The notes under the pieces are model-generated. The model had not been told where the DNA came from and made no database searches. It saw nothing but the letters and a program-made list of their open reading frames with translations. A stretch of 64,000 nucleotides of DNA, taken from contig JAFUXF010000012.1 in NCBI GenBank assembly GCA_017477185.1, forward strand, positions 2,850 to 66,849. The letters are read 5' to 3'. The position numbers and the translations under genes are program-made. This document shows positions 7,067-32,100 of this stretch, one piece after another; the stretch's first letter is position 1; each line of letters begins with the position of its first letter. This DNA comes from Alphaproteobacteria bacterium. Its GTDB lineage: Bacteria; Pseudomonadota; Alphaproteobacteria; RF32; CAG-239.

Positions 7067-8092
7067 ATGTCAGATATTTATAATCCAATTAATTCGGAAA
7101 CAACAAAAAATACTGAAAAAAAGAAGAAAGCAGATGATTTTAATAAATCTGATGCAAGAGGTTGGACACCTTTAATGCGTTTAGCATACTCATCTCAAGA
7201 TATTCAAGCCATTAAAGATTTAATTGATAAGGGAGCGGATATTAATATAAAAGGAATTAACGGTTGGTCTCCGCTCATGGCTGCAATTATAGGACATAAT
7301 ACACCTGATGTTGTACAAGTATTAATAGATAATGGTGCCGATATAAACAGTATAGATAAAACTTATAAAAATATTTTAATGCGTGCTGTTGCTATCCCTG
7401 CAAATTCTCAAATTATAGAAAAATTGATACAAAACGGAGCTGATGCTAATGCTAAAGACAATAAAGATAAAACTGTGCTTATGAATGCCTTGTATTACTC
7501 TGATGATATTGGAAATATTGAAACTTTAGTCAGAAACGGAGCTGATGTTAATGCCAAAAATAAATATGGCGAAACACCGTTAATGTATGCTTTTCGTAAG
7601 TATGAAAATTTTGATATTATAGAATTATTGCTTAAAAATGGTGCAGATGTCAATGCCAGAGATGATTCAACAGAAACAATTTTAATGAAAGCTCTTGATA
7701 GGCATAAAACACCTGAATTTATAGAAAAATTAATTGAGTTTGGAGCTGATGTTAATTTGAAAAACAAACACGGAGAAAGTCCTTTAATCCGTGCTGTTTA
7801 TCAATCTAAAAATACGGGTATTATTGAAATCTTGTTAAAAAACGGGGCGGATATAAACATCCAAACAAAAGATGGTTTCACGCCTTTAATGAATGCCATT
7901 CGTTGTCCTAAAAAAGATAAAATTACAGAATTACTCATAGAACAAGGAGCTGATGTAAATATAACCAATCATAATGGAGATACAGCCCTCTCTCTTGCGA
8001 TTCAATATTCTAATAAACCTGAAATTATAGATTTATTAATTAAAAAGGCGACTGCTAAAATGAAAACAGTTAACACAGAAAAAGGAGCATAA
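7067..8092 (+). CDS. ankyrin-repeat protein (about 9 repeats)
   Basis: Repeated G-x-TPLM-x-A...LI/LL-x-x-GADVN units appear throughout. Confidence 0.9.
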   Translation: MSDIYNPINSETTKNTEKKKKADDFNKSDARGWTPLMRLAYSSQDIQAIKDLIDKGADINIKGINGWSPLMAAIIGHNTPDVVQVLIDNGADINSIDKTYKNILMRAVAIPANSQIIEKLIQNGADANAKDNKDKTVLMNALYYSDDIGNIETLVRNGADVNAKNKYGETPLMYAFRKYENFDIIELLLKNGADVNARDDSTETILMKALDRHKTPEFIEKLIEFGADVNLKNKHGESPLIRAVYQSKNTGIIEILLKNGADINIQTKDGFTPLMNAIRCPKKDKITELLIEQGADVNITNHNGDTALSLAIQYSNKPEIIDLLIKKATAKMKTVNTEKGA

Positions 8093-11284: not shown

Positions 11285-11884
11285 ATGGCAATAGGTAAAC
11301 AAGCAAAAGTTTTGACAGATAAGCAACAACATCTTATTTTAACGCATTTAGACAATTCTCGTTACCCTTTACGCAATAAAATTATAGTTTTGTTGAGTTT
11401 CAAAGCCGGATTAAGAGCTAAAGAAATTGCAAATTTAACATGGGAGATGGTTTGCGACTCAGCCGGAAATATTGGAAATTCTTTAAATTTAACCAATAAA
11501 GCCTGTAAAGGTCAGCATTCCGGGCGAATTATTCCTATGCATACAGAACTTAAACATTTTTTGTCGCTATATCTTAATGAAGCTAAAGAAAAAACTTATT
11601 TTGACCTAGAAAAAAATGTGATAGGAAGTGAGAGAAATAACCACGTTTCTGCTCAAATGATTGTAAATTTCTTTCAAAACCTTTATAAAACCATTGGTTT
11701 TAGCGGTTGTTCCTCACATAGCGGCAGACGAACATTTATAACTAATGCCGCTAAAATCATAGGACAAGCCGGCGGTACATTAAATGATGTGAAATTATTA
11801 GCAGGGCATTCTTCTCTTAACACTACCCAACGCTATATTGAATATAATACCGAAGCTCAAAAACGTATTATTGAGAAGATTTAG
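11285..11884 (+). CDS. small tyrosine recombinase (catalytic domain only, 199 aa)
   Basis: Carries GLRAKEI (Arg I), HSGRRTF (H-x-x-R) and GHSSLNTTQRYIE (His/Tyr nucleophile). There is no N-terminal arm or SAM-like domain. Confidence 0.85.
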   Translation: MAIGKQAKVLTDKQQHLILTHLDNSRYPLRNKIIVLLSFKAGLRAKEIANLTWEMVCDSAGNIGNSLNLTNKACKGQHSGRIIPMHTELKHFLSLYLNEAKEKTYFDLEKNVIGSERNNHVSAQMIVNFFQNLYKTIGFSGCSSHSGRRTFITNAAKIIGQAGGTLNDVKLLAGHSSLNTTQRYIEYNTEAQKRIIEKI

Positions 11885-11887
11885 AAA

Positions 11888-12628
11888 TCACTTTTTCCTA
11901 TAAATAACCGTGATTTCTTTTGTAGAACTATTATATAATCCTTCTATTCCACTTGATAAAACTATTTCAAATTTACCATCAATTTCTATATACCTATCAT
12001 GAGAATTTTTATATATAAGCTTTTTACACTTTGTTAAGCTACAACTACGCCTAATATCTGAGATACACGCTTGCTCCTCTGGACACAAGTGTTGTGTATC
12101 TTTACAAATTTCATAATAAAAAGTTATATTAGGATTATTTTTTCTTAAATCCTTAAAAAAACTTTTGGTTAATTTAGCATTCTTAGGTAAAAACATATAT
12201 CTATCACAAACAACTACCTGTTTAGCTGAAGCACATAAAGATTTAATCATTTCAATGGCATTATTTCTGTCTTCTCGAATATTAAAAAACATACTATAGT
12301 TTTTCTTCAACTTACTTTCATTTATATTTACACACGGAAAGATATCATTGTTTGTTGTTAATTTTATTTTATAATCTGTCAAATCTAACAAATCTTTCTC
12401 ACTTTTACCATCAAAATTACTAGCTAAAATCTGAGATGCAACGGAGCTATCTTCTGTAGATATTTTATCCCAATAATTGATACGTTCCAATTGAGCTTTT
12501 GTTGTTAAAAAAGTAGGCTGATAAAGGCTAAAAAATTTTTGCACTAAATAAACATCAACAGTTTTTCCTGTTTTAAAATCATAATACAATTTCAACAAAT
12601 TATCGTCTAATAAAAGAGAGTAATTCAT
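11888..12628 (-). CDS. hypothetical protein, third gene of the DUF262/ATPase operon
   Basis: Start overlaps the ATPase stop. The C-terminal HDRYIEIDGKFEIVLSSGIEGL faintly resembles PLD-like/MIT_C-type HDR-x-I...G-x-G-l motifs. That assignment is weak. Confidence 0.6.
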   Translation of the reverse strand: MNYSLLLDDNLLKLYYDFKTGKTVDVYLVQKFFSLYQPTFLTTKAQLERINYWDKISTEDSSVASQILASNFDGKSEKDLLDLTDYKIKLTTNNDIFPCVNINESKLKKNYSMFFNIREDRNNAIEMIKSLCASAKQVVVCDRYMFLPKNAKLTKSFFKDLRKNNPNITFYYEICKDTQHLCPEEQACISDIRRSCSLTKCKKLIYKNSHDRYIEIDGKFEIVLSSGIEGLYNSSTKEITVIYRKK

Positions 12629-13782
12629 TAAGACATTTCCAAAAGTTCAGTTAATGTTGAATCAAAGAAACCACTAGGAAAAGCTACTTCTTTTTTATCA
12701 CTATTTATAAATTTTCCCTTTTCATTTATCTGTAAATTAATGAAATTATCTTTCAGGCTTTTTTTATAATATATATTAACATTTTCATTTTTTATATGCT
12801 TTTTAAAAACTTCATATCGAATTTTATTTATTAAATGTTCGCTATGTGTCTCCAAAATAACTTGAACTCCATTTTCTGCAAGAAAAGAAAAAAACATTCC
12901 TAATCGTGCTTGTGCTTTAGGATGTAAATGTATTTCTGGATTTTCTATTATAACAATATTTCCTTTTTTACATAAAAGGCATAAAATTAAAATTTTAATT
13001 AAATAACTATTTCCAGCTCCGACATTAACCGGATTAATTTTTGAAATACCATCTATATCAAAACTTAATTTTGCATTTTTATCATCAATTCTTTCTGTGT
13101 TTGCGGTTATGTCAATATCTAAAATTTCTTTTAGCCACATATCCACTTGATATGACAACGTATTACTACCTTCAAATTTTACCAATTCTGGGGAGACCTC
13201 TTGTGTTTTATGTGTCTCTAAAAAACCAATTAAATATTCTCCCATTTTACCAACTTTTTTAGATGCATCAACTAATGAAATATCTTCTGGACCGAGTCTG
13301 TTAGCCGACAAATAATATAAATTGTCCTCATAGGTAAATAAATTATTTTCAAAAAAGTCTTTGTTTTTCAAAAGATTGGATATTTCATCATTTTTTACAT
13401 TTTTATTATTATTGATGTGATTTAATAAAACACCTCTTAACTCTTTAGGTAATTGTTTTAAGGCGGCTATATTATGTTGTGGTTCATTTTCTGTATTAAT
13501 TCTATAATTATATACATATTCCTTATCGCATCTTGCTGTTATTTCTATGCTCTTTTCTTCTGTGTATTTATTTCGCACATCAACAAAATTTGAAAAAAAT
13601 GAAACATAATCATCTAAATTTGGATTAGCTGTTAAAGAGTACTTGTGCGACAATAATAATATGCTCTGTAATACAGATGATTTTCCTGTTGAATTCAATC
13701 CAGTAAATATTGTTAAATTATTCAACAAAAAGGTTTCTTCTGTAATATTTTTAAAATTTTTAATTTTAAGCTCTCTTAACAT
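12628..13782 (-). CDS. AAA/ABC-type ATPase with DUF3696-like C-terminus
   Basis: N-terminal LKIKNFKNI. Walker A GLNSTGKSS. Walker B-like IVIIENPEIHLHPKAQ, then ILETHSEHLINKI. Confidence 0.85.
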   Translation of the reverse strand: MLRELKIKNFKNITEETFLLNNLTIFTGLNSTGKSSVLQSILLLSHKYSLTANPNLDDYVSFFSNFVDVRNKYTEEKSIEITARCDKEYVYNYRINTENEPQHNIAALKQLPKELRGVLLNHINNNKNVKNDEISNLLKNKDFFENNLFTYEDNLYYLSANRLGPEDISLVDASKKVGKMGEYLIGFLETHKTQEVSPELVKFEGSNTLSYQVDMWLKEILDIDITANTERIDDKNAKLSFDIDGISKINPVNVGAGNSYLIKILILCLLCKKGNIVIIENPEIHLHPKAQARLGMFFSFLAENGVQVILETHSEHLINKIRYEVFKKHIKNENVNIYYKKSLKDNFINLQINEKGKFINSDKKEVAFPSGFFDSTLTELLEMS

Positions 13783-14903
13783 TATAACAAACCTTCCAAC
13801 ATTTTTTCGACAGCTTCAAATCTATATTTAATTGCTACATTTGAATCTATAATTCTCAAAATTCCCTGTTCATCCATATCCTGTTTTAACAGGTCAATCT
13901 TCTTTTTCAATTCAATTAATCCTATTTTATCTAAATTTATATTAAAACTAAATAAATATGCCAATATCTCAAATAGTCCCATATTAATCGGACGCTTTTG
14001 CGTACCTACTTTAGATCTTTTATCGAATCTAAAACCATCCTTTCCTAAAACCTTATGACAATTTCTCATTGCTGATTCAAAGGTTTGTTCTAGTTGCTCT
14101 ACTTCTTCATCTGAAAACTTATTAATTGCCTTCATAACATTTGCTAAAAAATCATCTATATCACTTTTGTACTCAACATCTATTTTATCTGTTCTATATA
14201 AATAAAAACCTAAATATCTTAATATCATATATCGGTCTTTCATTCTTGCTGTTGGCACCCCTCCTCCTGTTGCAAGAATAAAAAGGCGAGATTTAGCTAA
14301 CCGTTTTAATAATTCAGTTGATTTACCAAGGTACAAAGCATTTCTCATTTCCTGATTATTTAATTGCGTTCCCCCTCTATTAACTCTATCAAATATGTCA
14401 AATTTAACTCTTTCTGGGGTTGGTGGCTGAACAGTATATACTGTCACTTGGTAATCTTCTATTTTAGACTGTAAAACAGGCGGCAAATCCTTAAAATAAT
14501 AAGTATTATATTCACCTAAAATATTTAAATCACTCAATTTAAATTTATTATTCATAAATTTTGTAATACATGTAAGTCTTTGTCGCCCATCTACAACTTG
14601 GCGTACTCCTTTTTCATCTTCAAAAAAATATATAATAGGAATAGGTATCCCCATTATAATAGATTCTATCAATTCAGAATTTTGCTTATGGCTCCAAACA
14701 TTTTCCCTCTGAAATTCAGGATCTATAACTATAAATATATTTTCTGTTAATTTTCTTTTTAACTCATACAAACTATATGTATCTCTACTAAATTTAATAG
14801 AAATATTAGGATAATTTGTTTTTAAATTGTTTAGTGACTTATTATCTAAAGTCTCCTCACCCTCTAGATATGAATCTGTCCTTTGAAGTATATTTTCAGC
14901 CAT
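13782..14903 (-). CDS. DUF262 (ParB/Srx-like) domain protein
   Basis: IDPEFQRENVWSHKQNSELIESIIMGIPIPIIYF...VVDGRQRL matches the DGQQR-type motif. There is no DUF1524/HNH-like C-terminal domain. Confidence 0.85.
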   Translation of the reverse strand: MAENILQRTDSYLEGEETLDNKSLNNLKTNYPNISIKFSRDTYSLYELKRKLTENIFIVIDPEFQRENVWSHKQNSELIESIIMGIPIPIIYFFEDEKGVRQVVDGRQRLTCITKFMNNKFKLSDLNILGEYNTYYFKDLPPVLQSKIEDYQVTVYTVQPPTPERVKFDIFDRVNRGGTQLNNQEMRNALYLGKSTELLKRLAKSRLFILATGGGVPTARMKDRYMILRYLGFYLYRTDKIDVEYKSDIDDFLANVMKAINKFSDEEVEQLEQTFESAMRNCHKVLGKDGFRFDKRSKVGTQKRPINMGLFEILAYLFSFNINLDKIGLIELKKKIDLLKQDMDEQGILRIIDSNVAIKYRFEAVEKMLEGLL

Positions 14904-15345: not shown

Positions 15346-16083
15346 TTAATCCAGTACTTCATACCAATCATCATCAAAATGTAAGGCATTTAAAACAGCC
15401 TCTCTATCTAAAACATTTGGGTGTTTAATTTGTATATGTAATCGATTACAAGGAATATCTTCAATAATCGTAAATTGACTACCACTTGGTTGCCAAGTAA
15501 ATTTATGAATATTTGACTTTTTTTCATAACCTTCTAAATTCCCTCTACTATTCCAGTTAAAATAATATAATTCAGGATCATAACGAACAGTATCAAATTC
15601 GAAAATTAAAAAATCCCTATAGTCTTTTGATTTCACAAGCACAACTGTACGCACAAATTTAAATACTTGCCGGACAGCTGAGACCCTTTCATTCCATATA
15701 GAAAGGACCATTTTACCTATTTCATTTGGCTCTGAACTTGTTATTTTATCTTGTCCAAAACTAAAAGTTGGAGAATTTCTTCCTGAAATTAATCGTACCT
15801 TTTCTTGACTACATATATTAGATTGCGAAAAAACTGTTTTAGCACCCCAACAACAATTGTTGAGTATAATATCATCTAAACCTACATTTGATGGTTTCCA
15901 CTCTGCGCCTACCGCTTCTGCAAAAATTTGTTCCCATTCATTGCCTTCTAAAGACATACATTTTTTCGTTGCCAGTAAATATACAATATTCTTTGCAAAC
16001 ACATTAATAAAGTGTTTAGGAAAGCTATTTAGTAAAAAAGGTGGAATAGCTTTATTCACTGTTCTTAATTTTGGTTCTAACAT
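15346..16083 (-). CDS. putative type II restriction endonuclease, partner of the adjacent C5-methyltransferase
   Basis: 245-aa ORF 37 nt downstream of the MTase gene, with an AAGGAGG RBS. The call rests on context only; I recognised no family. Confidence 0.5.
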   Translation of the reverse strand: MLEPKLRTVNKAIPPFLLNSFPKHFINVFAKNIVYLLATKKCMSLEGNEWEQIFAEAVGAEWKPSNVGLDDIILNNCCWGAKTVFSQSNICSQEKVRLISGRNSPTFSFGQDKITSSEPNEIGKMVLSIWNERVSAVRQVFKFVRTVVLVKSKDYRDFLIFEFDTVRYDPELYYFNWNSRGNLEGYEKKSNIHKFTWQPSGSQFTIIEDIPCNRLHIQIKHPNVLDREAVLNALHFDDDWYEVLD

Positions 16084-16120: not shown

Positions 16121-17254
16121 TTAAAATGCTATAGGTAAAAAACGTTTTATTACTTCGGCAACCATGTCAACAGGTATTGCATTACCTGCTTGTTTGCGAG
16201 TTTGGCAATCAGATACTACAATTTTAAAAGTTTCTGGAAATCCTTGTAATCTAAGCATTTCTCTAGGGGTTAATCTCCTTTCTCCATTTACTAAAAGGTA
16301 ATTATAACTTGCTCCAGCCCTTAATGCACAACTATATGGATAAGAAGATATATTTCCTGATTTATTTTCGTGCCATATTGCTGGATAATATTTAGAAGTG
16401 TGCATAGCTTTTCTTTTAGAGATAATATCTTTAGATGCATAATATTTTTTATCGACAACTTTATCCAATATATCACTTAAAGTTTTTTGTTTTTCTACTT
16501 TAAAATTCCAATCCATCTTAAAAGGTTTTTTAGCCCCTAATATCAAAACTCTTTCTCTTTTTTGAGGTAGCCCAAAATCTAAAGCATTTAACAAATGATA
16601 ATCTACGTAATAACCTAATTCATCTCTTAGTACTTCTATAATAGTTCTAATAGTCTTTCCATTATTATGACTAGCTAGATTTTTAACATTTTCTAAGACA
16701 AAAGCTTGTGGTTGTTTTGCTTTTATAATACGTGCTATATCAAAAAATAATGTTCCTCTTGTCGTATCTTCGAAACCTTTTCTTAAACCACATATAGAAA
16801 ATGTTTGACAAGGAAATCCTCCAAATAATAAATCAAATGTAGGAATCTGAGAAGCTTTTATTTTTGTTATATCTCCTGCAGGTCTCTCACTAAAATTTGC
16901 TTCATATGCCTCTTGTGCATATTTATCTATATCGCTACTAAAAACACATTTTCCTTTTATATTTAACTGATCAAAAGCTTTTTGAGATGCATATCTGAAA
17001 CCACCTATTCCACAAAATAAATCTACAAAACTCATTTTTTTTGGTAAAATCTTGCCGTGATTATGTTCTATATCCATGAATAACTTATCTATACTAACAT
17101 TTAACATTTTTGATAATTTCATAGCTATTACAATAGATGGTGTTACTGTATTTTTCTCTATTTTAGAAAGATATGTACGACTGATACCTGCTATTTTAGC
17201 AAGTTCAATTTGTGTAATGTGTTTTTCTTTTCTAATTTTAGCGACATTATTCAT
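16121..17254 (-). CDS. DNA (cytosine-5) methyltransferase with N-terminal XRE-type HTH
   Basis: HTH ITQIELAKIAGISRTYLSKIE. Motif I DLFCGIGGF. Motif IV GGFPCQTFS. Motif VI ENV. Also QKRERV, and the C-terminal RRLTPREMLRLQGFP and GNAIPV. Confidence 0.92.
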   Translation of the reverse strand: MNNVAKIRKEKHITQIELAKIAGISRTYLSKIEKNTVTPSIVIAMKLSKMLNVSIDKLFMDIEHNHGKILPKKMSFVDLFCGIGGFRYASQKAFDQLNIKGKCVFSSDIDKYAQEAYEANFSERPAGDITKIKASQIPTFDLLFGGFPCQTFSICGLRKGFEDTTRGTLFFDIARIIKAKQPQAFVLENVKNLASHNNGKTIRTIIEVLRDELGYYVDYHLLNALDFGLPQKRERVLILGAKKPFKMDWNFKVEKQKTLSDILDKVVDKKYYASKDIISKRKAMHTSKYYPAIWHENKSGNISSYPYSCALRAGASYNYLLVNGERRLTPREMLRLQGFPETFKIVVSDCQTRKQAGNAIPVDMVAEVIKRFLPIAF

Positions 17255-17352: not shown

Positions 17353-17817
17353 TTATTTTCTTTCGTTTTTAATGTTTTCTCTGAAAGATGCAACCAGATC
17401 TTGAACTTGTATTACACAATCACGATCTAATCGAAACATTTGTGTTTGAAATGTCCCTCCTGTTGCTTTTGATTTAATCTCGTTAAAATCTCTAATATAG
17501 TCAACAATATCTCTATTTAGTAAGGTTTTATATTTTTTATTTATGATTGTTAAACTTGAAGAAATATTTTTCCCTTTATATGTAATTTCACTAGCTCTTA
17601 AAGTACGTTCATCTTGTGAAAGTCCCGCAACCATCCAATATTGGCGACAAAGTTCGAGATAAGTATCTATATCTTTAACTATTTCATTTAATTCATCATT
17701 GAATTTATTTAATTTTAATTGTTGTGATAATTTAATTTCTTTATACCAACTAACACCAGCAGCTGCTACTGAACTTATAGCAGAAACTACACTGACAATT
17801 GTACTAATACTACACAT
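17353..17817 (-). CDS. single-pass membrane protein (putative effector of the GHKL/STAS module)
   Basis: N-terminal TM segment SISTIVSVVSAISSVAAAGVSWY followed by ~125 aa predicted helical. AAGGAAG RBS. Overlaps the upstream gene by 8 nt. Confidence 0.6.
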   Translation of the reverse strand: MCSISTIVSVVSAISSVAAAGVSWYKEIKLSQQLKLNKFNDELNEIVKDIDTYLELCRQYWMVAGLSQDERTLRASEITYKGKNISSSLTIINKKYKTLLNRDIVDYIRDFNEIKSKATGGTFQTQMFRLDRDCVIQVQDLVASFRENIKNERK

Positions 17818-18139
17818 TTTTTGCTTCCTTTAAATATCCTTTTAGCAAAGGTATCAATGTATCGTCATCACTGCATGTAAATTCAATTTTTGCAGTCACT
17901 TCATCGTACGAAAAACCATCTTCTGTAATTAAAGAAACAAACGCTTCATCCCAAAAAGAAGAACCAACACCACATAAACCGTTAAGGTTAATAATAATTT
18001 TTTCAACATTCCTATCTCTCAGTGGTTCTACCAAAAACTCTTTTCTAAATTTTTCTCCACTATAAGGTCCGTCATTATAAAAACGCCCCGCAGGGACTTT
18101 ACTAAAGTCATTGGCTATAGATATATTTTTTATTTCCAT
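17810..18139 (-). CDS. STAS-like (DUF4325-type) small protein
   Basis: I prefer the start at MEIKNIS (AGGAGG upstream). IIINLNGLCGVGSSFWDEAF is typical of DUF4325/STAS-like partner domains. Confidence 0.6.
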   Translation of the reverse strand: MEIKNISIANDFSKVPAGRFYNDGPYSGEKFRKEFLVEPLRDRNVEKIIINLNGLCGVGSSFWDEAFVSLITEDGFSYDEVTAKIEFTCSDDDTLIPLLKGYLKEAKNV

Positions 18140-18147
18140 ATGTCCTC

Positions 18148-19161
18148 CTATTGTAAACGAACTTTCCACTGAATTAATGTACCTTTTAGAGATTCTTCTC
18201 TATTCTTTACAGATTCTGTACCTTCAGAAAGATACATATATTCTCCTCGATAACTAAATATTTTTAACATTCCTTCTATATTTGATGTAATATAATCTTT
18301 TATATCCTTCAAGCCTTTTCCTCGAGTCTTCTGTTTTGTTGATGTTCTACTTAGTTGAGTTGCAGCTTGTATCCTCTGTGCATCATCATTAAGTAACCCT
18401 CCAAAACTTTTAAAATATTCCGTATGTGTTCTAGGTAAAGAATTAGGTATTCCTATACCTTCATCATAAAACATTATTGTTAACATCTTATTTTTAATAT
18501 TTAAGGACGCAGACATCCACCATAGTCGTTTTTTTAATAAATTATTTGATAAATAATCTTCTGGATATGCGTGATTTATTGAGTTTGTCATAGCTTCTGT
18601 TAAACCTTTTTGCAGTGCTCTAGGAGAAGGTACAGAACCTTGAATTAAGGCTGATAATAAAGTTCCAAGTTTTAAAGCATCTTCACCTGAAGCTATATCT
18701 CCAGCTTGAAATGGTATATAAAAATCTTCACTATCATTTTTTTCATAATTAAATTTTGCAGGTAGATTACTGACATTTAAGAGCTCAAACATTCCCATGT
18801 CCCTAAGTTGTAATCGAATATTTCTATCCCATTTTTTAAAATCTATTACCCTCATTCTCCTAAAACACTTTATACGTTTTATCCTATCTATTTCGGCTGT
18901 AAAAGCTAATGCAGCTGCCGGAGATATTTTTTTTAATGGTTTAAAATCAATAATGAATCTTTTTTTTGTCTCCTCGCAAGCAGATCTTAATTTATTAAAA
19001 AATTTTACTGTCTCATCATAATTTTCATTAAGATTCATATTTTCTGGTGTCTTAATGTTTTCTAAGGCATACTTTCGATGTCGTTTATTTTTTTTGAAAA
19101 TAGAGCGACGTATTTTATTCAATAAATATTTTTTATGTTCTTCTGATAGTTTTTTCATCAA
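18148..19161 (-). CDS. GHKL-type ATPase (HATPase_c-like) with N-terminal STAS-like region
   Basis: N-box-like EAMTNSINHAYP. G1-like YDEGIGIP. G2-like TRGKGLKDI. The N-terminal half has IIDFKPLKKISPAAALAFTAEIDRI. Confidence 0.7.
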   Translation of the reverse strand: MMKKLSEEHKKYLLNKIRRSIFKKNKRHRKYALENIKTPENMNLNENYDETVKFFNKLRSACEETKKRFIIDFKPLKKISPAAALAFTAEIDRIKRIKCFRRMRVIDFKKWDRNIRLQLRDMGMFELLNVSNLPAKFNYEKNDSEDFYIPFQAGDIASGEDALKLGTLLSALIQGSVPSPRALQKGLTEAMTNSINHAYPEDYLSNNLLKKRLWWMSASLNIKNKMLTIMFYDEGIGIPNSLPRTHTEYFKSFGGLLNDDAQRIQAATQLSRTSTKQKTRGKGLKDIKDYITSNIEGMLKIFSYRGEYMYLSEGTESVKNREESLKGTLIQWKVRLQ

Positions 19162-19236
19162 TAACCTTTACTATTCGTAGCAATTATATTGAGTTATTAT
19201 CTTTCAATCAAGGATATTTTATATCTTTTTATCCCT

Positions 19237-19554
19237 TCACGCCACATAATACGAACTTATCTTTTTACCATTCTTGCATACATTTTCCTGATATAACAAG
19301 CCATTTTCATCATATAATTTAACCGTACCGTGCATTTTACCATTTTTATAAGGTATCGCCATAAATAGCTTTCCGCTCTTTCTATTGTAGACACGCATGA
19401 TCCCATTAAGTGGATTGTTTTGTAAATCATAGCGGATATTATTCTTAAAAACAGTATTCTGCGGTGTATATTCCTCTTGTGCCTGACAATTAAAGCTAAA
19501 CAAACTGATTATAACAACCACTAATATGCTTAATTTATTGAAATACACAAACAT
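19237..19554 (-). CDS. secreted MORN-repeat-variant (YwqK-like) protein
   Basis: I prefer the start at MFVYFNKLSILVVVIISLFSFNCQAQ, which is a signal peptide. Repeats are G-x-x-x-x-Y-x-x-x-G and KNGKMHGTVKLYDENG. Confidence 0.65.
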   Translation of the reverse strand: MFVYFNKLSILVVVIISLFSFNCQAQEEYTPQNTVFKNNIRYDLQNNPLNGIMRVYNRKSGKLFMAIPYKNGKMHGTVKLYDENGLLYQENVCKNGKKISSYYVA

Positions 19555-19672
19555 TTGCGTTCCTCCGTGTTGAACTTGATTATAATAAGTTTTACAGATA
19601 ACGCAAGAATTATCCGATCTACAAATGCCAAATATTGACACTAGTTAAAGATATTAAATTTACGTTGTGGAA

Positions 19673-20995
19673 TTACTCCAACTCCAACAACCACTCTAAC
19701 ACATTCAAACGTTTAATGCCTTTAGTATTGCCTGAGCCATAGTCCATAGAGAGCAAAAACTTCGGGTAATTGTCTTCGATTTCCTCTAATGGAGCTAATT
19801 CGCGTTTTAATACTTCCGGCTCCAGTGCATACAAAGCAACTTGGTAATATTCGACTTCACCAACACTTTTTTGAGCCACAAAATCAACTTCAATATTTTT
19901 ACCGCCTTTATTGATTTTACCGACAGACACTTGATAGCCACGTCGCAACAACTCTAAATATACGACATTTTCTAAAATATGCCCTTGATCCATATCTTCA
20001 TGACCAAGCAGAGCTGTACGCAAGCCAATATCAGCCACATAATATTTAGCACTATTCTCTAAAAGCTGTTTGCCTTTAATATCATAGCGGTCGCATTTAT
20101 ACATCAAATAGCTGTCGATTAAACCTTGTATATAGGTTGATATTGTCGGGACTGAAACACTAAAACCACCTGCTTTCAACCCTTTTTCAATATTTCGAAC
20201 CGACGTTTCATTGCCGATATTATCAAATAAATAACGCACCACCGCATCCAGTTTATTGGTATCACTGATTTTGAAGCGACGAACAATGTCTTTTTGAATA
20301 GTGTTGCGATATACCGTGTCCATCAAGTAGTCATTAATAAGTTGTCTATCGTATAAAAAATCTAATGTCTGAGGAAATCCACTTTTTTTAATGTAATGGG
20401 AATAAACTCCTAGCGGGTTACGAGTATCTTCCATTTCTTTAATCGTTAAAGCGTGTATAGGCGCTCTCATCGTGTAATCTGAATAATACTCTTTGAAAGA
20501 CAATGGTTGCATTTTGATTTCTACATAGCGACCGCCCAAAGTATTTGCCAAATCAGAAGAGAACATATAAGCATTAGAGCCAGTCAAATAAACATCAACA
20601 TTCTCGTGTAACCGAAGTGTATTAGCCACTCTCTGCCAATCACGCAATAATTGTATCTCATCAAGAAAGACATAATTCATTATTTGCGGTTTTAATCGTG
20701 CAACCACATAATCAAGCAGTTTGTTATAATCTGTTAAAAAGCCTTCTTTGTCATACTCTAAACCAATTTCTCTGGTTTTCATCAGGTCTTCAAGATTGAT
20801 ATTAATAATGTTGATTTTCTGTTTTTTATTATGGCTCTCAATTTCAAGATCCATTTGATAAAGTGAAAACAACTTCGATTTGCCGCACCGTCTTACGCCT
20901 GTTATGATTTTAATTAAATCCTGTTGAGACCGCCATTTTTGAAGTTGAGCGATATATGTTGGTCTTCCAATTAAATGTTCGACAGCTTTTTTCAT
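19673..20995 (-). CDS. AAA-superfamily ATPase with DUF4143-like C-terminal domain (COG1373-type)
   Basis: Walker A GVRRCGKS and Walker B VFLDEIQ. Overall architecture is typical of this family. Confidence 0.8.
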   Translation of the reverse strand: MKKAVEHLIGRPTYIAQLQKWRSQQDLIKIITGVRRCGKSKLFSLYQMDLEIESHNKKQKINIININLEDLMKTREIGLEYDKEGFLTDYNKLLDYVVARLKPQIMNYVFLDEIQLLRDWQRVANTLRLHENVDVYLTGSNAYMFSSDLANTLGGRYVEIKMQPLSFKEYYSDYTMRAPIHALTIKEMEDTRNPLGVYSHYIKKSGFPQTLDFLYDRQLINDYLMDTVYRNTIQKDIVRRFKISDTNKLDAVVRYLFDNIGNETSVRNIEKGLKAGGFSVSVPTISTYIQGLIDSYLMYKCDRYDIKGKQLLENSAKYYVADIGLRTALLGHEDMDQGHILENVVYLELLRRGYQVSVGKINKGGKNIEVDFVAQKSVGEVEYYQVALYALEPEVLKRELAPLEEIEDNYPKFLLSMDYGSGNTKGIKRLNVLEWLLELE

Positions 20996-26252: not shown

Positions 26253-27197
26253 CTATTCTCTACGTGTATCTATTAATTTGATATTGTCAATTTGCGACTT
26301 ATCAAACATAGCATATCCTGACGGTGTATACATAACTGGCCTGATTTTACCTTCTTTCATCCAATAACGAATTGTTGAAACAGGCAGTTCGGCCAATTTA
26401 GCAAATTTTGAAATCGTTAGCAATTTATCTTGAGATTCTACTTTTTCTACATCTAATAAATCAATCATCATTTTAAGTGAACGATTGAGTGCCGACAGCA
26501 TAAACTTATAATAAGGCTCGCTATTTTCTTTGGTTTGATATGTTTCTAAAGCAGTTAAATATCTCTTGCGGTCAATTTTTCTGATGATGATTGGTGCATA
26601 ACCATTTTCAAGCAAAATACTATTTAAGAGCAGACGTGCTGTCCTTCCGTTACCATCAACGAACGGATGTATAGAGACTAAACGATAGTGTGCTTCTATT
26701 GCTTTTATGAGCACATCATTATCTTTTTCAAGCAACCATTTGCCAAAATCACTCATTAAATCAGGAACTTTTAGAGGATTAGGTAAAATTGTTTGTGATC
26801 CTGAAATTCGAACTTTGACAGAACGATAAAAGCCTGCATTACTATCATCTATACCTGATAAAATGATTTTATGGATTTGCAGCATGTAATTTTCATCAAT
26901 TTGGACTTTATTTTTAGCGGCTTCACAAATAAAATCAAAAGCGTTTGCGTGATTTCTGGCTTCAAGATAATCATTAATCGGTTTAGCACCGGTTGTAATT
27001 TGCTCTTCAATAGCTAATTCTGTCTCACGTCTGGTTAAAGTATTGCCTTCAATAGCGTTGGAAGTATAAGCAAGCTCTGTTTTAAGCCACTTGTCTAAGA
27101 CTTTCTGATTATCTTTATTTTGCAAAAGTTTTTGTAGTTTTTTGCTGTTTTCTTCAATTTTAGAGCGGATTTCCTGCATAACAACCCCATACTTCAT
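26253..27197 (-). CDS. Fic-family protein with N-terminal inhibitory motif and C-terminal MerR/excisionase-type HTH
   Basis: Fic motif HPFVDGNGRTARLL. (S/T)xxxE(G/N) motif TSNAIEGN. C-terminal LLTISKFAKLAELPVSTIRYWMKEGKI. Confidence 0.9.
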   Translation of the reverse strand: MKYGVVMQEIRSKIEENSKKLQKLLQNKDNQKVLDKWLKTELAYTSNAIEGNTLTRRETELAIEEQITTGAKPINDYLEARNHANAFDFICEAAKNKVQIDENYMLQIHKIILSGIDDSNAGFYRSVKVRISGSQTILPNPLKVPDLMSDFGKWLLEKDNDVLIKAIEAHYRLVSIHPFVDGNGRTARLLLNSILLENGYAPIIIRKIDRKRYLTALETYQTKENSEPYYKFMLSALNRSLKMMIDLLDVEKVESQDKLLTISKFAKLAELPVSTIRYWMKEGKIRPVMYTPSGYAMFDKSQIDNIKLIDTRRE

Positions 27198-27400: not shown

Positions 27401-27721
27401 TTAATACTCATCAGCTGTCATTATTGTCATAACTCTTACTGTCTGGCTTTCATCTGCTGGATCATTTGATAAATAACATAAGGATTTGTCATAATAATCA
27501 ATTTTGAACATGATTTTTTGACCTTTATAATCAAAAGAGCCAAAATCATGCTCTTCATAAGGATCATTTGCGGTGGTAAAAGCGTTGAATTGCTTCACTT
27601 TTCTAATGATTTCTGCAATTTCATTACCTGGTTTTGTGTTAATTCCTAAGGTTAACATTACTCTACCACCTGTAAATGTCTTGCGAAAGTTGTCATTTAG
27701 CCTTTGGATTGCATTAGTCAT
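27401..27721 (-). CDS. DUF3768-family protein (second paralog)
   Basis: NDPYEEHDFGSF...FKIDYYD...NDPADESQTVRVMTIMTADEY. Confidence 0.8.
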   Translation of the reverse strand: MTNAIQRLNDNFRKTFTGGRVMLTLGINTKPGNEIAEIIRKVKQFNAFTTANDPYEEHDFGSFDYKGQKIMFKIDYYDKSLCYLSNDPADESQTVRVMTIMTADEY

Positions 27722-28334: not shown

Positions 28335-29084
28335 TTATTGCTGATAAATCAGAGAATAAACTGGTTTCCAACCAGTCCCATGTGTTGCATTTTTGACGAC
28401 TACTATATTTTCTTCCGCTGCAAATTTTTGCGTTAATTCAGACGGAATCACTTCATCTTTGCCGCCAACATAATGTATTTGCGGCACAGTTGCAAATTTC
28501 TCTTTGTCATCAGCTAAATTTAATGAACCTTCAAGGGGTGGTAATTTATGATATTCAGTCCACGTTTTATGATCTAAATTACCGGCAATCGTTATAACCT
28601 TTTTGATTTTTAGATCAGGATATTTCACTGCTATTAAACCGGCAATTTGCGCTCCACCGGAATAACCTATTAAAGTTATATTCTTATTTCCGACAATTTG
28701 CTTAATTGCATCATATTCAGACTCAATAACTTCTGGAGCAAAACGTTTGGTTGTCCAATACGATACAATACAAGCATCATCTTTAACATATTGACATGGA
28801 CGAGCTATATAGATGACATTGGGTGCCGGGTCATTAAAACTTAATTCACGCATTAGTTCCCCGCGTGGCGTTGGATTCTTGCTTGGGAGCCCTCTCGCAT
28901 TAAAAGCATGACCATCACCTTCAATATAAATGCGATAATCAGCATCTTTCTCTGTTATTTTTTGCCAAGAAGCTATTTTGAATTGTGATGTAACAATTTC
29001 TTTATACGCGAAATCTTCCGAAGGCTGAATACTTTGGCATCCGGACAATATTGTTAAAAAACAAAACGTAAAAAATATTCTCAT
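28335..29084 (-). CDS. lipoprotein, alpha/beta-hydrolase fold
   Basis: Lipobox LTILSGC. Nucleophile-elbow GYSGG. Confidence 0.7.
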   Translation of the reverse strand: MRIFFTFCFLTILSGCQSIQPSEDFAYKEIVTSQFKIASWQKITEKDADYRIYIEGDGHAFNARGLPSKNPTPRGELMRELSFNDPAPNVIYIARPCQYVKDDACIVSYWTTKRFAPEVIESEYDAIKQIVGNKNITLIGYSGGAQIAGLIAVKYPDLKIKKVITIAGNLDHKTWTEYHKLPPLEGSLNLADDKEKFATVPQIHYVGGKDEVIPSELTQKFAAEENIVVVKNATHGTGWKPVYSLIYQQ

Positions 29085-29181: not shown

Positions 29182-32100
29182 TTAGAAATTATACTTAGCC
29201 TTTAATGAACCGGTATGGCTGGTATATCCTTGACGAAGATTTGCATTATATTCTGCAGATAGTGTCCAATCTTCAACATCGACATCAACACCAACGCCAG
29301 CTTCCAAACCAATACGATCTAATTTCTCACCAGTAACGTTATAAACATTTGTTCCGACATTAACAGTTGCATTAGAATCATCGCTTAACAGATCATAAGT
29401 CAAAGCAACTCTTGCTCTCGGTGTAAATGTATATGTTTCATTTTCCACCGTACTTGCAAAATTAATTCCTGCAACAGCTGTTAAAATATCAACATCATCA
29501 GCTCTAATACGCTGTCCAACTGTATCTGTATAATCATCACGTTTAATATGAGTATATCTTAAACCAGCTTCAGGGGTAATACCATCTTGCCAATCATAGC
29601 CGACATAAGCACTTGCCCCCATATTTTGAACATTATAATCGCCTTTATTAACAACTCCGCCAATATTGGCTTTTTCCTCATATTTAGCGATACCATACAT
29701 AGCCATAGCACGCACAAACCATTCTGACGGCTGATATTTACCATAAACATAAAAGTTATGACTTGCTATATCTGTATCGCGTCCAGCAGACTCAACATCT
29801 GTATTGCCGTAAGCATAACCGACACCGACCATTGTTTGGCTGTCTTTTTTACCATCTAAACCAAAAGCAACTCCTTTTGTATGCCCTCTAAATCCAGGCA
29901 TTTGGTCTGCTGCATGTTGTTTAGAACGGTTATATAATGTCTGCACCCATGCTCCTTGACGCTCAAATACATCTCCTGAGTTCATACCTTGCGTTTGTAA
30001 GCGATCGGCGACTTGAGCATCTACCATGTTATTAAAGTCTTGTGTGACTCCCACATGAACCAAGCTATCTGTTGGAGCTAAATCAGTTAAAGCTTTGGTA
30101 TAAGCAACAGCATCATGCTGAGATAATTCATTCAAATATTCCTGAACAACAGCTGCAGGTGTTCCTTCCGGAGCATTAAATGAATCCCAAGCTTGAGCTG
30201 CTTTAACATTATTTGTTGAACCGTTTGCCGCTTCAGTAACATCAGCGGCTGAAGATGTATAAGTAATTTTGAATTTACCATCCTCTGTTTGCGTAACCTG
30301 ATAACGATTATTAGACATCAGTTCAGCAAAATCACCTGTTTTTGTTCCGGTGACATTAATCAGGTCAAGACCTTCTGTTGATTGACCTTTTTCGGTCATT
30401 AAACCGGAAGCGACCGTTAATGCTAATTTAGAAGAACTTCCCAAGGTTAAATCATGAGCTGTTAATTTACCACCGGTATAATCACTTGAAGCATCACTAA
30501 GATTTGTAATACCCATTTTCAGTGTCCCATTAATAACCGCATCACCCAATGTAACCTGATTTGTTCCGATATCTAACGAACCATTATTGGCAATTATTGT
30601 GTTAGATGTTGTTAAATCTGCACCATCGCCCCAAATCGCATCACCAATAATGTTGGTTATACCACCATTAACAGCATTACCAATTGTTCCACCATTAATA
30701 TTATATGTGCCATTATTGGTAATAGCGACTTGAATATTATCAGCACTGGAAGTCAAAGACTTATCATTATTAATTGTGATAGCACTTGAAATAACAGCAT
30801 TATTAGCAACTGCACCCTCAACAATTAAATTACCACCACTGACTGCTTTGCCAATTGTACCACCGGTAACCTTATAAGTTCCACCGGTTACTGTGCCTGT
30901 AACATTGCTTGCATTACTTTCTAATGATTGACCATTATTAATGGTAATGTTGTTAGCTATTTGAGCATTATTTACCACATCTCCGGCAACAACTAAAGCA
31001 CCATTACCGGTTACATTCTGAGCAATTGTTCCATCGGTTACATTATATGTTCCTGAGTTAGCAACTGTTCCGCTGATATCATCTGCTGATGAAGTCAATG
31101 TTCCGGTAACAGTAACATTTTCCAGAGTTCCGTTATTGGTAACATTTCCTGAAATTTTCGTCGTACCGGCAATCGTTTTATTTAATGTACCACCAGTTAA
31201 TTCAATCGTTCCGGCATTTGTTGTAATATCATTACTAAATCCGTTTGCGGCTGTCTTTAATGTTCCACCGGAAGCAATTTCAACCATATTCGTCATCGTT
31301 GTATTGTTTTGAACAGTTCCGCTAATCTTGGTTGTACCACCTGTAATTTGTTGGGCTAATGTTCCACCGGTTAAATTAACTATACCACCATTTGTAACCG
31401 CACCGCCAATTTTATCAGCTGCCGTTGTTAATGTCTTATTTGAATTAATTGTAACTTCCTGACTGATTGTACCTGTATTAGTCATGTTATTTGCAATCAC
31501 TGTATGTCCATCACCAGTGATAGCATTTGCATTAGCTGTACCGGTTAAAGTTAAAGTGCCATCATTATCAACACCATTAGCCGTTGTCATAGAAGAAACC
31601 GTCAATCCGCTATTTTCAGCAACAGAAACAGAATCTTGTTCAACAAAATCAATAGTTGTTACGCCACCATCAACATAGAATGTTCCTTCACCTGTCAACT
31701 TATCAAGGGCATTTGTACCTGTAGCATGGACTTCTCCGGTATTAGCAATTCCTGCGTTAATGGTTGAGTCTTTAATATTAACCGTTCCGTTAGATGCAAT
31801 CACATTTGCCGTATTTTCTGCAACAACTACACCATCAAGATTAGCTTCTGCAGTACTATTGGTAATATTAATTAATGAACCGGTTTCAGTTTTTGCATTA
31901 ACAACCTCTACATTTTTCAAATTAACGGTTGTATCTGCTTTTGAAACAGCGAATCCTATCTTTCCATTCATATCCAACTCAGCCAAATCTGTTGCGCTTC
32001 TACCTTCAATAGTAATATCTCCGGCAGCTGTTGTTCCCAGATTTTGAGTTAACTGATAAGCGTTAGAAGACTCTGTTGTTGTGGCTTTCATACTTCTTGA

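Follow-up and report, generated by a model that had tools for sequence, protein, structure and literature searches.

Three tightly packed genes encoding a kinase, a STAS-like protein and a small membrane protein lie in a defence island of an Alphaproteobacteria bacterium contig, raising the question of what this trio controls and whether it belongs to a family that already has a name. The whole 64,000-nucleotide stretch of this contig that was analysed is hereafter called the window. A first-pass annotation had placed the trio between a restriction-modification (R-M) system and other defence-type genes of a mobile island. This setting is supported by PADLOC, which detects in the window a type II methyltransferase, a complete Menshen system (NsnABC), a PDC-S01 gene and a SoFic-like protein, and by the presence of a recombinase nearby. 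The trio is flanked by the type II methyltransferase with a putative nuclease, by the Menshen system and by the PDC-S01 gene, and an R-M pair lies immediately downstream of it on the same strand. None of the three proteins has a match in PADLOC-DB v2.0.0 at E ≤ 1, and their NCBIfam and Pfam scans return no named system.

Organization of the three genes

The first gene, g1 (18148..19158, minus strand), codes for a 336-amino-acid kinase, counted from an ATG. Its ORF was confirmed; the length of 337 amino acids given previously was not, as it counts a TTG one codon upstream of this ATG, which we take as the true start because MKKLS begins all homologs. The second gene, g2 (17810..18139, minus strand), is predicted by a confirmed ORF and by Pfam to encode a 109-amino-acid single-domain STAS-like protein (DUF4325). 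The third, g3 (17353..17817, minus strand), is a confirmed ORF coding for a 154-amino-acid bitopic membrane protein, the putative effector. The tight packing reported for these three minus-strand ORFs was verified in the sequence: the TAG stop codon of g1 (18150-18148) and the ATG of g2 at 18139 are separated by an 8-nt gap, and 8 nt (17810-17817) are shared by the reading frames of g2 and g3. An AGGAGG motif, the ribosome-binding site of g2, is read at 18144..18149 on the minus strand, 4 nt from the ATG. It is located at the end of g1, as had been noted, but not wholly inside the gene, since it straddles the stop codon, and this overlap indicates translational coupling of g1 and g2. A motif scan of the 75 nt that precede g1 identified a promoter-like TTGATT-17-TATAAT (19183..19211, minus strand), which is the best promoter match of the region (10/12 positions). 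In this AT-rich DNA, promoter-like sites are not enriched (8 found versus 16 expected in shuffles), and the assignment of this motif as the g1 promoter is only suggestive.

The kinase

The g1 protein consists of a basic N-terminal helix (residues ~1-30), a STAS-like domain (~32-172) and a SpoIIAB/RsbW-type GHKL Ser/Thr kinase domain (~175-336). Its HATPase_c match in Pfam is weak (E 1e-4). The N box (E188, N192), the G1 box (D232xGxG) and the G2 box (R279-G-x-G282) show no variation in 45 homologs. RsbW and SpoIIAB are the top PDB sequence matches, and the N-box motif TEAMTNSINHAY is almost the same as the N box of RsbW. The protein was modeled with AlphaFold2 (AF2; pLDDT 89), and the top Foldseek matches of this model are SpoIIAB structures (E 9e-6, TM 0.72). 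The protein also matches phrog_3364 (E 7e-49), and its kinase clade, with roughly 3,800 members, falls into more than 2,000 clusters when grouped at 50% identity.

A kinase described by its authors as STAS plus GHKL, VapK, belongs to the recently reported VapKSC system, which is active against phage and whose genes are ordered kinase, STAS, effector: the STAS-GHKL kinase phosphorylates a DUF4325 antitoxin, and a PIN toxin is freed (Chambers et al., EMBO J 2026; PMC13373217). CapK and CapS, a GHKL kinase and a STAS protein regulating immune operons, also use a serine-phosphorylation switch (PMC13373217). The sequences of VapS and VapK were taken from the AlphaFold files of this study (PMC13373217) and compared directly with the trio. 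The g1 family aligned with VapK (hhalign 97.3%, E 1.8e-11) over 266 columns covering both the STAS-like and the GHKL parts. The STAS-like nature of the g1 N-terminus is supported by this full-length homology and by the beta-alpha-beta pattern of the AF2 model, and the fusion of STAS-like and GHKL regions described initially is thus retained, with domain matches, AF2 model and VapK homology in agreement.

The basic N-terminal helix is conserved among g1 homologs; a Pfam-type scan and the AF2 model reveal this single helix at the N-terminus and no HTH. In VapK and CapK, ssDNA is contacted by an aromatic residue (F54 and W68, respectively; PMC13373217). VapK F54 aligns to K77 of g1, in a column that is variable in the 45-sequence alignment, and therefore the VapK/CapK trigger is not simply transferable to g1. 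Sensing of ssDNA was not adopted for g1, as the contact residue is not conserved.

The STAS protein

The earlier description of g2 as a DUF4325/STAS-like protein of 109 amino acids agrees with its Pfam match, which is above the cut-off (E 2e-8); VapS belongs to the same family (E 2.7e-17). The direct hhalign comparison of g2 with VapS is weak (E 0.007), and the link between them rests on their common Pfam membership. Searching PDB sequences with a profile of g2 retrieved neither VapS, present in the VapS-VapC structure 9Z7O (Chambers et al., PMC13373217), nor CapS, which are either too divergent or absent from the copy searched. Residues P16, R19, G28, F31, G59, S61, F62, E65 and F67 of g2 are invariant. 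Within the motif GxGSSFxxEAF, Ser60/Ser61 is the putative phospho-acceptor site: S60 aligns with VapS S48 and S61 is one of the invariant residues. Fold, N box and DUF4325 all agree with the proposed pairing of a SpoIIAB/RsbW-type kinase with a STAS partner, in which g2 is a putative kinase substrate and effector inhibitor.

Neither the Pfam scan nor the family alignment revealed a wHTH or any other additional domain in g2. This result bears on whether the trio could be a regulator of the CapKS type. CapKS is a homologous kinase-STAS pair that often adjoins R-M systems (PMC13373217), and an R-M pair occupies the corresponding position in the window. However, g2 is a 109-amino-acid STAS domain alone, without the wHTH, g1 has no N-terminal HTH, and the genes downstream vary at every locus while g3 is constant. 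We consider a CapKS-like role very improbable, and rejected it on the lack of a DNA-binding domain in g2.

The membrane protein

In the output position, as recognized in the first-pass annotation, stands a small single-pass membrane protein: g3 is the third gene and its product has one transmembrane (TM) helix. Hydropathy and the AF2 model agree with the N-terminal TM helix and helical soluble domain attributed to it. There is one hydrophobic segment (residues 4-22, Kyte-Doolittle 1.93), the rest being all-helical; the TM helix, spanning residues ~4-24, is rich in Gly, Ala and Ser, and the C-terminal four-helix bundle carries conserved Y60-W61 and T119-G-G-x-F123 motifs. The AF2 model, also all-helical (pLDDT 79), was built on a shallow 10-sequence alignment. 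Positive-inside statistics (3-6 K/R residues after the TM helix versus 0-2 before) predict a cytoplasmic soluble domain, which would therefore be within reach of g2.

We found no family match for g3 in Pfam, NCBIfam, PADLOC or PHROG, no PIN or other Pfam domain in g3 and its homologs, and no recognisable pore-forming or enzymatic domain by domain scans and Foldseek. The Foldseek comparison of the model with the PDB gave no significant fold match, and as it returned generic or designed helical bundles alone (best E 0.07), every fold assignment was dropped. A word-index search for g3 homologs was insensitive (7-10 matches), and family membership was assessed with a local HMM on fetched loci. Mean pairwise identity is 20% for g3 versus 43% for g2. 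A g3 less conserved than g2 is the reverse of typical toxin-antitoxin pairs and counts against the membrane-effector model, as do the generic fold of g3 and the shallow alignment behind its structure prediction.

Conservation and genomic context

The three genes co-occur in other genomes, as had been anticipated, and are collinear in every complete related locus examined; the arrangement is therefore not due to chance. The genome scan used 12 closer sequences, the 45-sequence alignment having no sufficiently conserved block, and the trio is intact in 14/14 complete genome loci. It is also present in all loci from the protein look-up and in six of the seven IMG/VR loci, the third gene being not resolved in the remaining one (L036). 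Among metagenome loci with enough sequence, g2 comes after g1 in 29/30 and g3 is next in 24/24. Genes outside the trio are not conserved, and those downstream differ in every locus while g3 is constant. Housekeeping neighbours are encountered at some loci, which speaks against a defence cassette. The trio is a conserved, mobile cassette, spread patchily over several phyla and carried by plasmids, phages and defence islands. In two loci g1 is broken, by an IS1595 insertion (L003) and by a frameshift (L070), with g2 and g3 intact; this loss of g1 with g2 and g3 kept fits the kinase as an activator.

The homologs proved to lie in mobile or defence contexts without sigma-factor neighbours, as expected from the initial reading. 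The same domain families make up the RsbW/RsbV switches, and the trio could accordingly be imagined as a housekeeping partner switch of the stress response. Yet the absence of a sigma factor, already remarked upon, extends from the window neighbourhood to the recurrent neighbours of related loci, and no PP2C phosphatase was found in either; moreover, phages, plasmids and variable islands all carry the trio, between unrelated flanking genes, and its distribution across phyla is patchy. A housekeeping role is extremely improbable.

In prophages, for example L011, L022 and L036-L041, a CI/LexA-like or HTH repressor in the same orientation immediately precedes the trio. It is also found behind a repressor in Marinobacter phage AS1 and in a Pasteurella phage-plasmid. 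This post-repressor position is the slot used by lambda for rexAB. The trio likewise follows a repressor in Francisella phage KIRK (PMC7924643). It could serve the prophage itself rather than abortive host defence, g3 being a superinfection-exclusion, injection-blocking, holin- or antiholin-like protein that g1 and g2 would tune to lysogeny, induction or lysis timing. Its repeated location in the immunity region behind CI-like repressors and the membership of g1 in a PHROG family are consistent with such a service, as is the fact that small bitopic membrane proteins in the post-repressor slot are often exclusion factors. However, the trio is also carried by plasmids and by non-phage islands, the window included, and phage structural or lysis genes are not nearby; in AS1, the lysozyme gene is on the opposite strand, 2.7 kb from the trio, where it adjoins a Q-type antiterminator gene outside the trio operon. 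We regard a module dedicated to the prophage as quite unlikely.

Proposed mechanism

The reading that we favour, with a confidence slightly better than even, is that of a self-contained mobile anti-phage or exclusion cassette, with a kinase-STAS switch like that of VapKSC and a membrane effector. In the resting cell, g2 would be bound to the cytoplasmic four-helix bundle of g3, keeping g3 inactive. An infection cue would switch on the SpoIIAB-like kinase g1, which would phosphorylate g2 at Ser60/61, where STAS helix 2 begins with a conserved serine, and phosphorylated g2 would release g3. Self-association of g3 via its Gly/Ala/Ser-rich TM helix could then compromise the inner membrane, and this damage would abort the infection or block superinfection. 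By analogy with VapS-VapC, we infer that g2 binds g3 and gates its membrane-disrupting activity, and that g3 is toxic; we also infer that g1 responds to a trigger and that the cassette protects against phage.

The switch could also operate in the reverse direction. In that case, g1 would hold g3, as SpoIIAB holds sigma-F, or g3 would be a sensor or anchor recruiting g1 to the membrane, and unphosphorylated g2 would compete for g1; as the output, g1 would either phosphorylate proteins of the phage or the host, or set g3 free. Among solved structures, those nearest to g1 are anti-sigma kinases with two alternative partners, and its conserved basic N-terminal helix, which VapK does not have, could contact membrane lipids or g3. 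In addition, g3 looks adaptor-like rather than toxin-like, since its four-helix bundle is of a generic kind and poorly conserved. On the other hand, the PP2C phosphatase needed to reset a classical switch is outside the conserved unit, and the two loci that keep g2 and g3 with a broken kinase are hard to square with a g1 neutralising a toxic g3. Furthermore, in VapKSC the STAS protein binds the effector and not the kinase (PMC13373217). We consider this reversed arrangement unlikely.

Building on the favoured cassette, in which phosphorylation of g2 would release a membrane effector, we tentatively propose, with a confidence just short of even, that the trio founds a large and so far unnamed anti-phage family, namely the branch of kinase-STAS phospho-switches that acts through a membrane effector. 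In temperate phages, this family may routinely lie behind the CI repressor, in a slot like that of rexAB. It may respond to an infection input other than the ssDNA sensing of VapK/CapK, perhaps via the basic N-terminal helix that is specific to the g1 clade, and may kill or arrest cells with a single-pass membrane effector of a new kind, built as a four-helix bundle. Compared with the nuclease branch, the membrane branch looks far commoner, with thousands of kinase clusters versus 289 reported vapKSC operons (PMC13373217), and the trio sits in the lysogen-expressed exclusion slot of temperate phages from Francisella, Pasteurella, Marinobacter and gut Alphaproteobacteria. If the switch model is true, STAS serine phosphorylation would be a general and portable trigger that bacteria and their prophages couple to different killing devices, namely a nuclease in VapKSC, a repressor in CapKS and a membrane protein in the trio. 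The membrane branch would also extend the defence catalogue by a new effector fold and perhaps by a new infection sensor, provide an annotation for genes now called hypothetical or DUF4325, and offer a simple three-gene model of phospho-switch control over a membrane toxin.

Comparison with known systems

Lambda RexAB, whose genes belong to the prophage immunity region and share the orientation of the repressor, is related to the trio by functional analogy alone. In this pair, a sensor in the cytoplasm acts with a membrane protein that is proposed to collapse the membrane potential on superinfection; RexB is a polytopic membrane protein, and RexAB has no kinase or STAS component. We found no sequence or fold relationship between RexAB and the trio.

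The SpoIIAB-SpoIIAA and RsbW-RsbV pairs are similar to the trio in their kinase fold and N-box motif, which match g1, and in their STAS partner, whose serine is at the same structural position as in g2. The trio differs in having neither a sigma factor target nor a PP2C phosphatase, in the STAS-like domain that g1 itself carries, and in being mobile and prophage-borne.

The CapKS pair is homologous to g1/g2 and often adjoins R-M systems. However, CapK possesses an N-terminal HTH that g1 lacks, and CapS is a DNA-binding repressor with a C-terminal wHTH, whereas g2 is a STAS domain alone. CapKS is found upstream of a variable immune operon, whereas the constant partner in the trio is g3.

VapKSC differs from the trio in its third protein, a PIN nuclease (VapC) in place of the single-pass membrane four-helix-bundle protein encoded by g3. 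In addition, g1 has a basic N-terminal helix that is absent from VapK and belongs to a distinct clade, VapK scoring only 38.7 bits against the g1 clade profile, and position F54 of VapK falls in the variable K77 column. The g2 protein has an invariant N-terminal PxGR...G..F motif that is absent from VapS, and lacks the C-terminal inhibitory helix of VapS. The initial view that no named family has such a composition does not stand, given that VapKSC and CapKS use the same kinase and DUF4325/STAS switch (PMC13373217); the trio is therefore related to a named system, with the effector exchanged, rather than being an unassignable novelty. It shares with VapKSC the order of a kinase gene, a STAS gene and a small third gene, a STAS-like plus GHKL kinase homologous over its full length, a second protein of ~110 amino acids that is a DUF4325 STAS whose conserved Ser caps helix 2, and a location near other defence genes and on mobile DNA. 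Taken together, we propose that the trio is probably an unnamed membrane-acting branch of the VapKSC-type defence family.

Gene organization and protein features

The three genes of the trio are genuine open reading frames on the minus strand, namely g1 (18148..19158, 336 aa counted from ATG), g2 (17810..18139, 109 aa counted from ATG) and g3 (17353..17817, 154 aa). The ORF list and the sequence bear out the spacing described in the first-pass annotation: the ATG of g2 at 18139 leaves an 8-nt gap to g1, and that of g3 lies 8 nt within the 3' end of g2. The 337 aa previously given for g1 include a TTG one codon upstream in the ORF list; we retained the ATG as the start because MKKLS opens every homolog. 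The reported AGGAGG Shine-Dalgarno is present in the sequence (18149-18144), but straddles the TAG stop codon of g1 (18150-18148) rather than sitting wholly inside the gene. A TTGATT-17-TATAAT site in the 75 nt that precede g1 is the region's best promoter-like match, but only a suggestive one, as such matches are not enriched over shuffles in this AT-rich DNA.

The HATPase_c match of g1 is weak (E 1e-4, under the Pfam cut-off). The Bergerat-fold motifs (E188/A189/N192, D232-x-G234 and R279-G280-x-G282) are invariant in an alignment of 45 homologs, RsbW and SpoIIAB head the profile search of PDB sequences, and the N-box is nearly identical between the g1 profile (tEAmtNvvqHAYpee) and RsbW (SEACTNAVQHAYKED). 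g1 was modeled by AF2 with confidence (pLDDT 89, pTM 0.85) and the best structural matches of the model are SpoIIAB chains (E 9e-6, TM 0.72 over target), before CheA and GyrB. The first 30 residues make up a helix that is conserved and strongly basic, and the modeled beta-alpha-beta-alpha pattern of residues 32-172 fits a STAS-like domain. The g2 protein is a STAS-like DUF4325 over the Pfam threshold. Across 20 homologs its G59-S-S61-F-x-x-E-A-F motif is invariant or nearly so, and the N-terminal P16-x-G-R19 ... G28-x-x-F31 is equally conserved.

No family match was found for g3 in Pfam, NCBIfam, PADLOC or PHROGs. It has a single hydrophobic segment (residues 4-22), of which 39% is Gly/Ala/Ser/Thr. 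In 20 homologs, 3-6 Lys/Arg residues occur just after this segment and 0-2 before it, from which an N-out, C-in topology is predicted. The AF2 model (pLDDT 79, shallow alignment) comprises a long N-terminal helix followed by three helices, a predicted four-helix bundle anchored in the membrane, and gave no significant match in Foldseek. Y60-W61 and T119-G-G-x-F123 are conserved.

Conservation and spread of the trio

A genome scan returned 17 loci, spread over Alphaproteobacteria (Rhodospirillales, Kordiimonas), Magnetococcales, Pseudomonadales and Phycisphaerae. In the 14 whose sequence is complete, g1 is always followed by a DUF4325 protein and then by a third protein of 142-183 aa, which has a hydrophobic N-terminal helix and bears both the YW and the TGGxF motif. 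The trio was also present in all gut, rumen and marine contigs obtained from protein look-ups, one of them from a Flavobacteriaceae. In an independent metagenome scan, g2 followed g1 in 29 of the 30 loci with room for it, and a g3-family HMM match came next in 24/24. Distant members keep this layout (Vibrio, Pasteurella and Novosphingobium plasmids, a Helicobacter prophage and Marinobacter phage AS1), with a small third gene carrying a hydrophobic segment at its start; the Vibrio scophthalmi protein has an additional C-terminal segment, more hydrophobic than the N-terminal one, and a g3 variant of ~210 aa with two TM segments is found on IMG/VR contigs. Mean pairwise identity over the same 19 loci is 37% for g1, 43% for g2 and 20% for g3, and no gene beyond the trio is conserved across the compared loci. 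Searched in full with HMMER, 1.84 billion representatives yielded 2,157 clusters matching the g1 profile at E <= 1e-30, rising to 3,816 when the threshold is relaxed to E <= 1e-10; both tiers correspond to the g1 clade and not to VapK, the kinase of the VapKSC system, since VapK would reach only 38.7 bits (E 7e-5).

Several loci depart from this arrangement. In L003 (8909-11021) g1 is split by an insertion that brings in an IS1595-family transposase along with a TM2-domain ORF, and in L070 (227-1425) it is frameshifted, g2 and g3 being intact in both; in L025 and L026, g3 is cut to 125 aa with g1 and g2 intact. The Nostoc plasmid pANSO36B (L035, 1914-4308) encodes a 414-aa fused kinase-STAS protein followed by a DUF5895 protein, and g2 has a further match in the 441-aa profile phrog_5816, over the C-terminal 100 residues of that profile; single-chain kinase-STAS versions with other partners thus exist. 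Genes for NUDIX/NrtR, NAMPT, Macro and PRPP synthetase adjoin the trio homolog in L024 (8464-12014), a cluster reminiscent of gene sets for NAD salvage or counter-defence.

Genomic neighbourhood

A genuine defence island surrounds the trio in the window. The next gene downstream, likewise on the minus strand, encodes a C5 cytosine methyltransferase fused at its N-terminus to an HTH_3 domain (16121-17254), followed by a 245-aa ORF without family match (15346-16083, minus strand), probably its cognate restriction enzyme. Next comes a complete Menshen system (11888-14903, minus strand) whose start and stop codons overlap: NsnA (13782-14903, PADLOC E 7e-109), NsnB (12628-13782, E 8e-89) and NsnC (11888-12628, E 5e-50). 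Just upstream of the trio, beyond a small protein (19237-19641) that has a hydrophobic N-terminal segment and matches MORN repeats weakly, is an AAA_14/DUF4143 ATPase (19673-20995, minus strand) that matches the PADLOC candidate defence gene PDC-S01 (E 2e-128). Farther out are a PDC-S26-like nuclease, a WYL regulator and a SoFic/PDC-S04-like Fic-MerR fusion (26253-27197, minus strand, E about 1e-38). The fusion adjoins a DUF3768 protein (27401-27721, minus strand); a DUF3768 gene is also found near the trio homolog on a Novosphingobium plasmid (L031).

A short tyrosine recombinase (199 aa, 11285-11884, plus strand) shares 64% identity with one following the trio in related genomes. In the close relatives L018, L021 and L043 this recombinase follows the trio directly, convergent with it, and the genes after it correspond to window 28335-29084 and to a giant 3,716-aa ORF (29182-40332, minus strand) as their homologs. 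From this layout, the window has gained the about 5.4 kb of R-M and Menshen genes that separate trio and recombinase and is rearranged, which marks the junction as a cassette hot-spot. The giant ORF is probably a surface adhesin, given the Autotransporter domain of its L018 homolog. A 341-aa ankyrin-repeat protein (7067-8092, plus strand) hints at a host-associated lifestyle of this alphaproteobacterial MAG, and a tRNA-Gln gene (748-822, plus strand) lies within a predicted 565-aa ORF of the opposite strand.

Outside the window, the most striking pattern is the presence of the trio in the immunity regions of prophages. In L011, L022/L023 and L036-L041, as well as in phage AS1 and a Pasteurella element, g1 is preceded within 1 kb by a repressor gene in the same orientation, of the HTH-Peptidase_S24 or another HTH type. 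In lambda, rexAB occupies this post-repressor position. Francisella phage KIRK belongs to the same group: its gene table gives, in this order, a CI repressor, a 293-aa protein, a DUF4325 protein and a 125-aa TM protein (PMC7924643). A rival explanation is that the trio serves the prophage, in exclusion or lysis timing.

Comparison with known kinase-STAS systems

A literature search returned one directly relevant paper (Chambers et al., EMBO J 2026, PMC13373217) and no other describing the trio. There, ssDNA-activated CapK (HTH-STAS-GHKL) phosphorylates the repressor CapS (STAS-wHTH). The related VapKSC is a three-gene anti-phage toxin-antitoxin of VapK (STAS-GHKL), VapS (STAS, Ser48) and the PIN toxin VapC, which VapS binds and inhibits until it is phosphorylated; membrane or TM variants are not mentioned (PMC13373217). 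The trio lacks a DNA-binding domain and a sigma factor and its flanks vary, which contradicts CapKS-like control of transcription as well as a housekeeping signalling role.

VapK and VapS sequences were transcribed from the supplementary model files of PMC13373217; the alignment of the g1 family with VapK covers 266 columns at a probability of 97.3%. DUF4325 membership is common to VapS and g2, and the gene order is that of the trio. The direct comparison of g2 with VapS is weak (E 0.007); in its register VapS S48 falls on g2 S60, neighbour of the invariant S61. The ssDNA-contact residue F54 of VapK falls on g1 K77, a variable column.

Taken together, the best-supported reading is that the trio may work as a VapKSC-type switch with an exchanged effector, the putative membrane-damaging g3. 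The kinase g1 would phosphorylate g2 on Ser60/61, this would free g3, and the freed protein would damage the membrane. We favour this reading because g1 and g2 are homologous to VapK and VapS in a shared gene order, g2 and g3 are translationally coupled, the g3 bundle is predicted to be cytoplasmic, and g1 is broken in L003 (IS1595) and L070 (frameshift) with g2 and g3 intact. The generic fold and low conservation of g3 weigh against it, and in a rival, reversed partner switch g1 would instead hold g3 or be anchored by it.

The interpretation of the first-pass annotation is partly supported: its partner-switch idea was broadly right, but the trio, which it could assign to no named system, has a named close relative in VapKSC. 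The trio differs from VapKSC in the effector and the ssDNA-contact residue, both criteria of membership, and is therefore filed as a variant beside it. It is best seen as an effector-swapped relative of VapKSC, widespread, uncharacterised and experimentally tractable.
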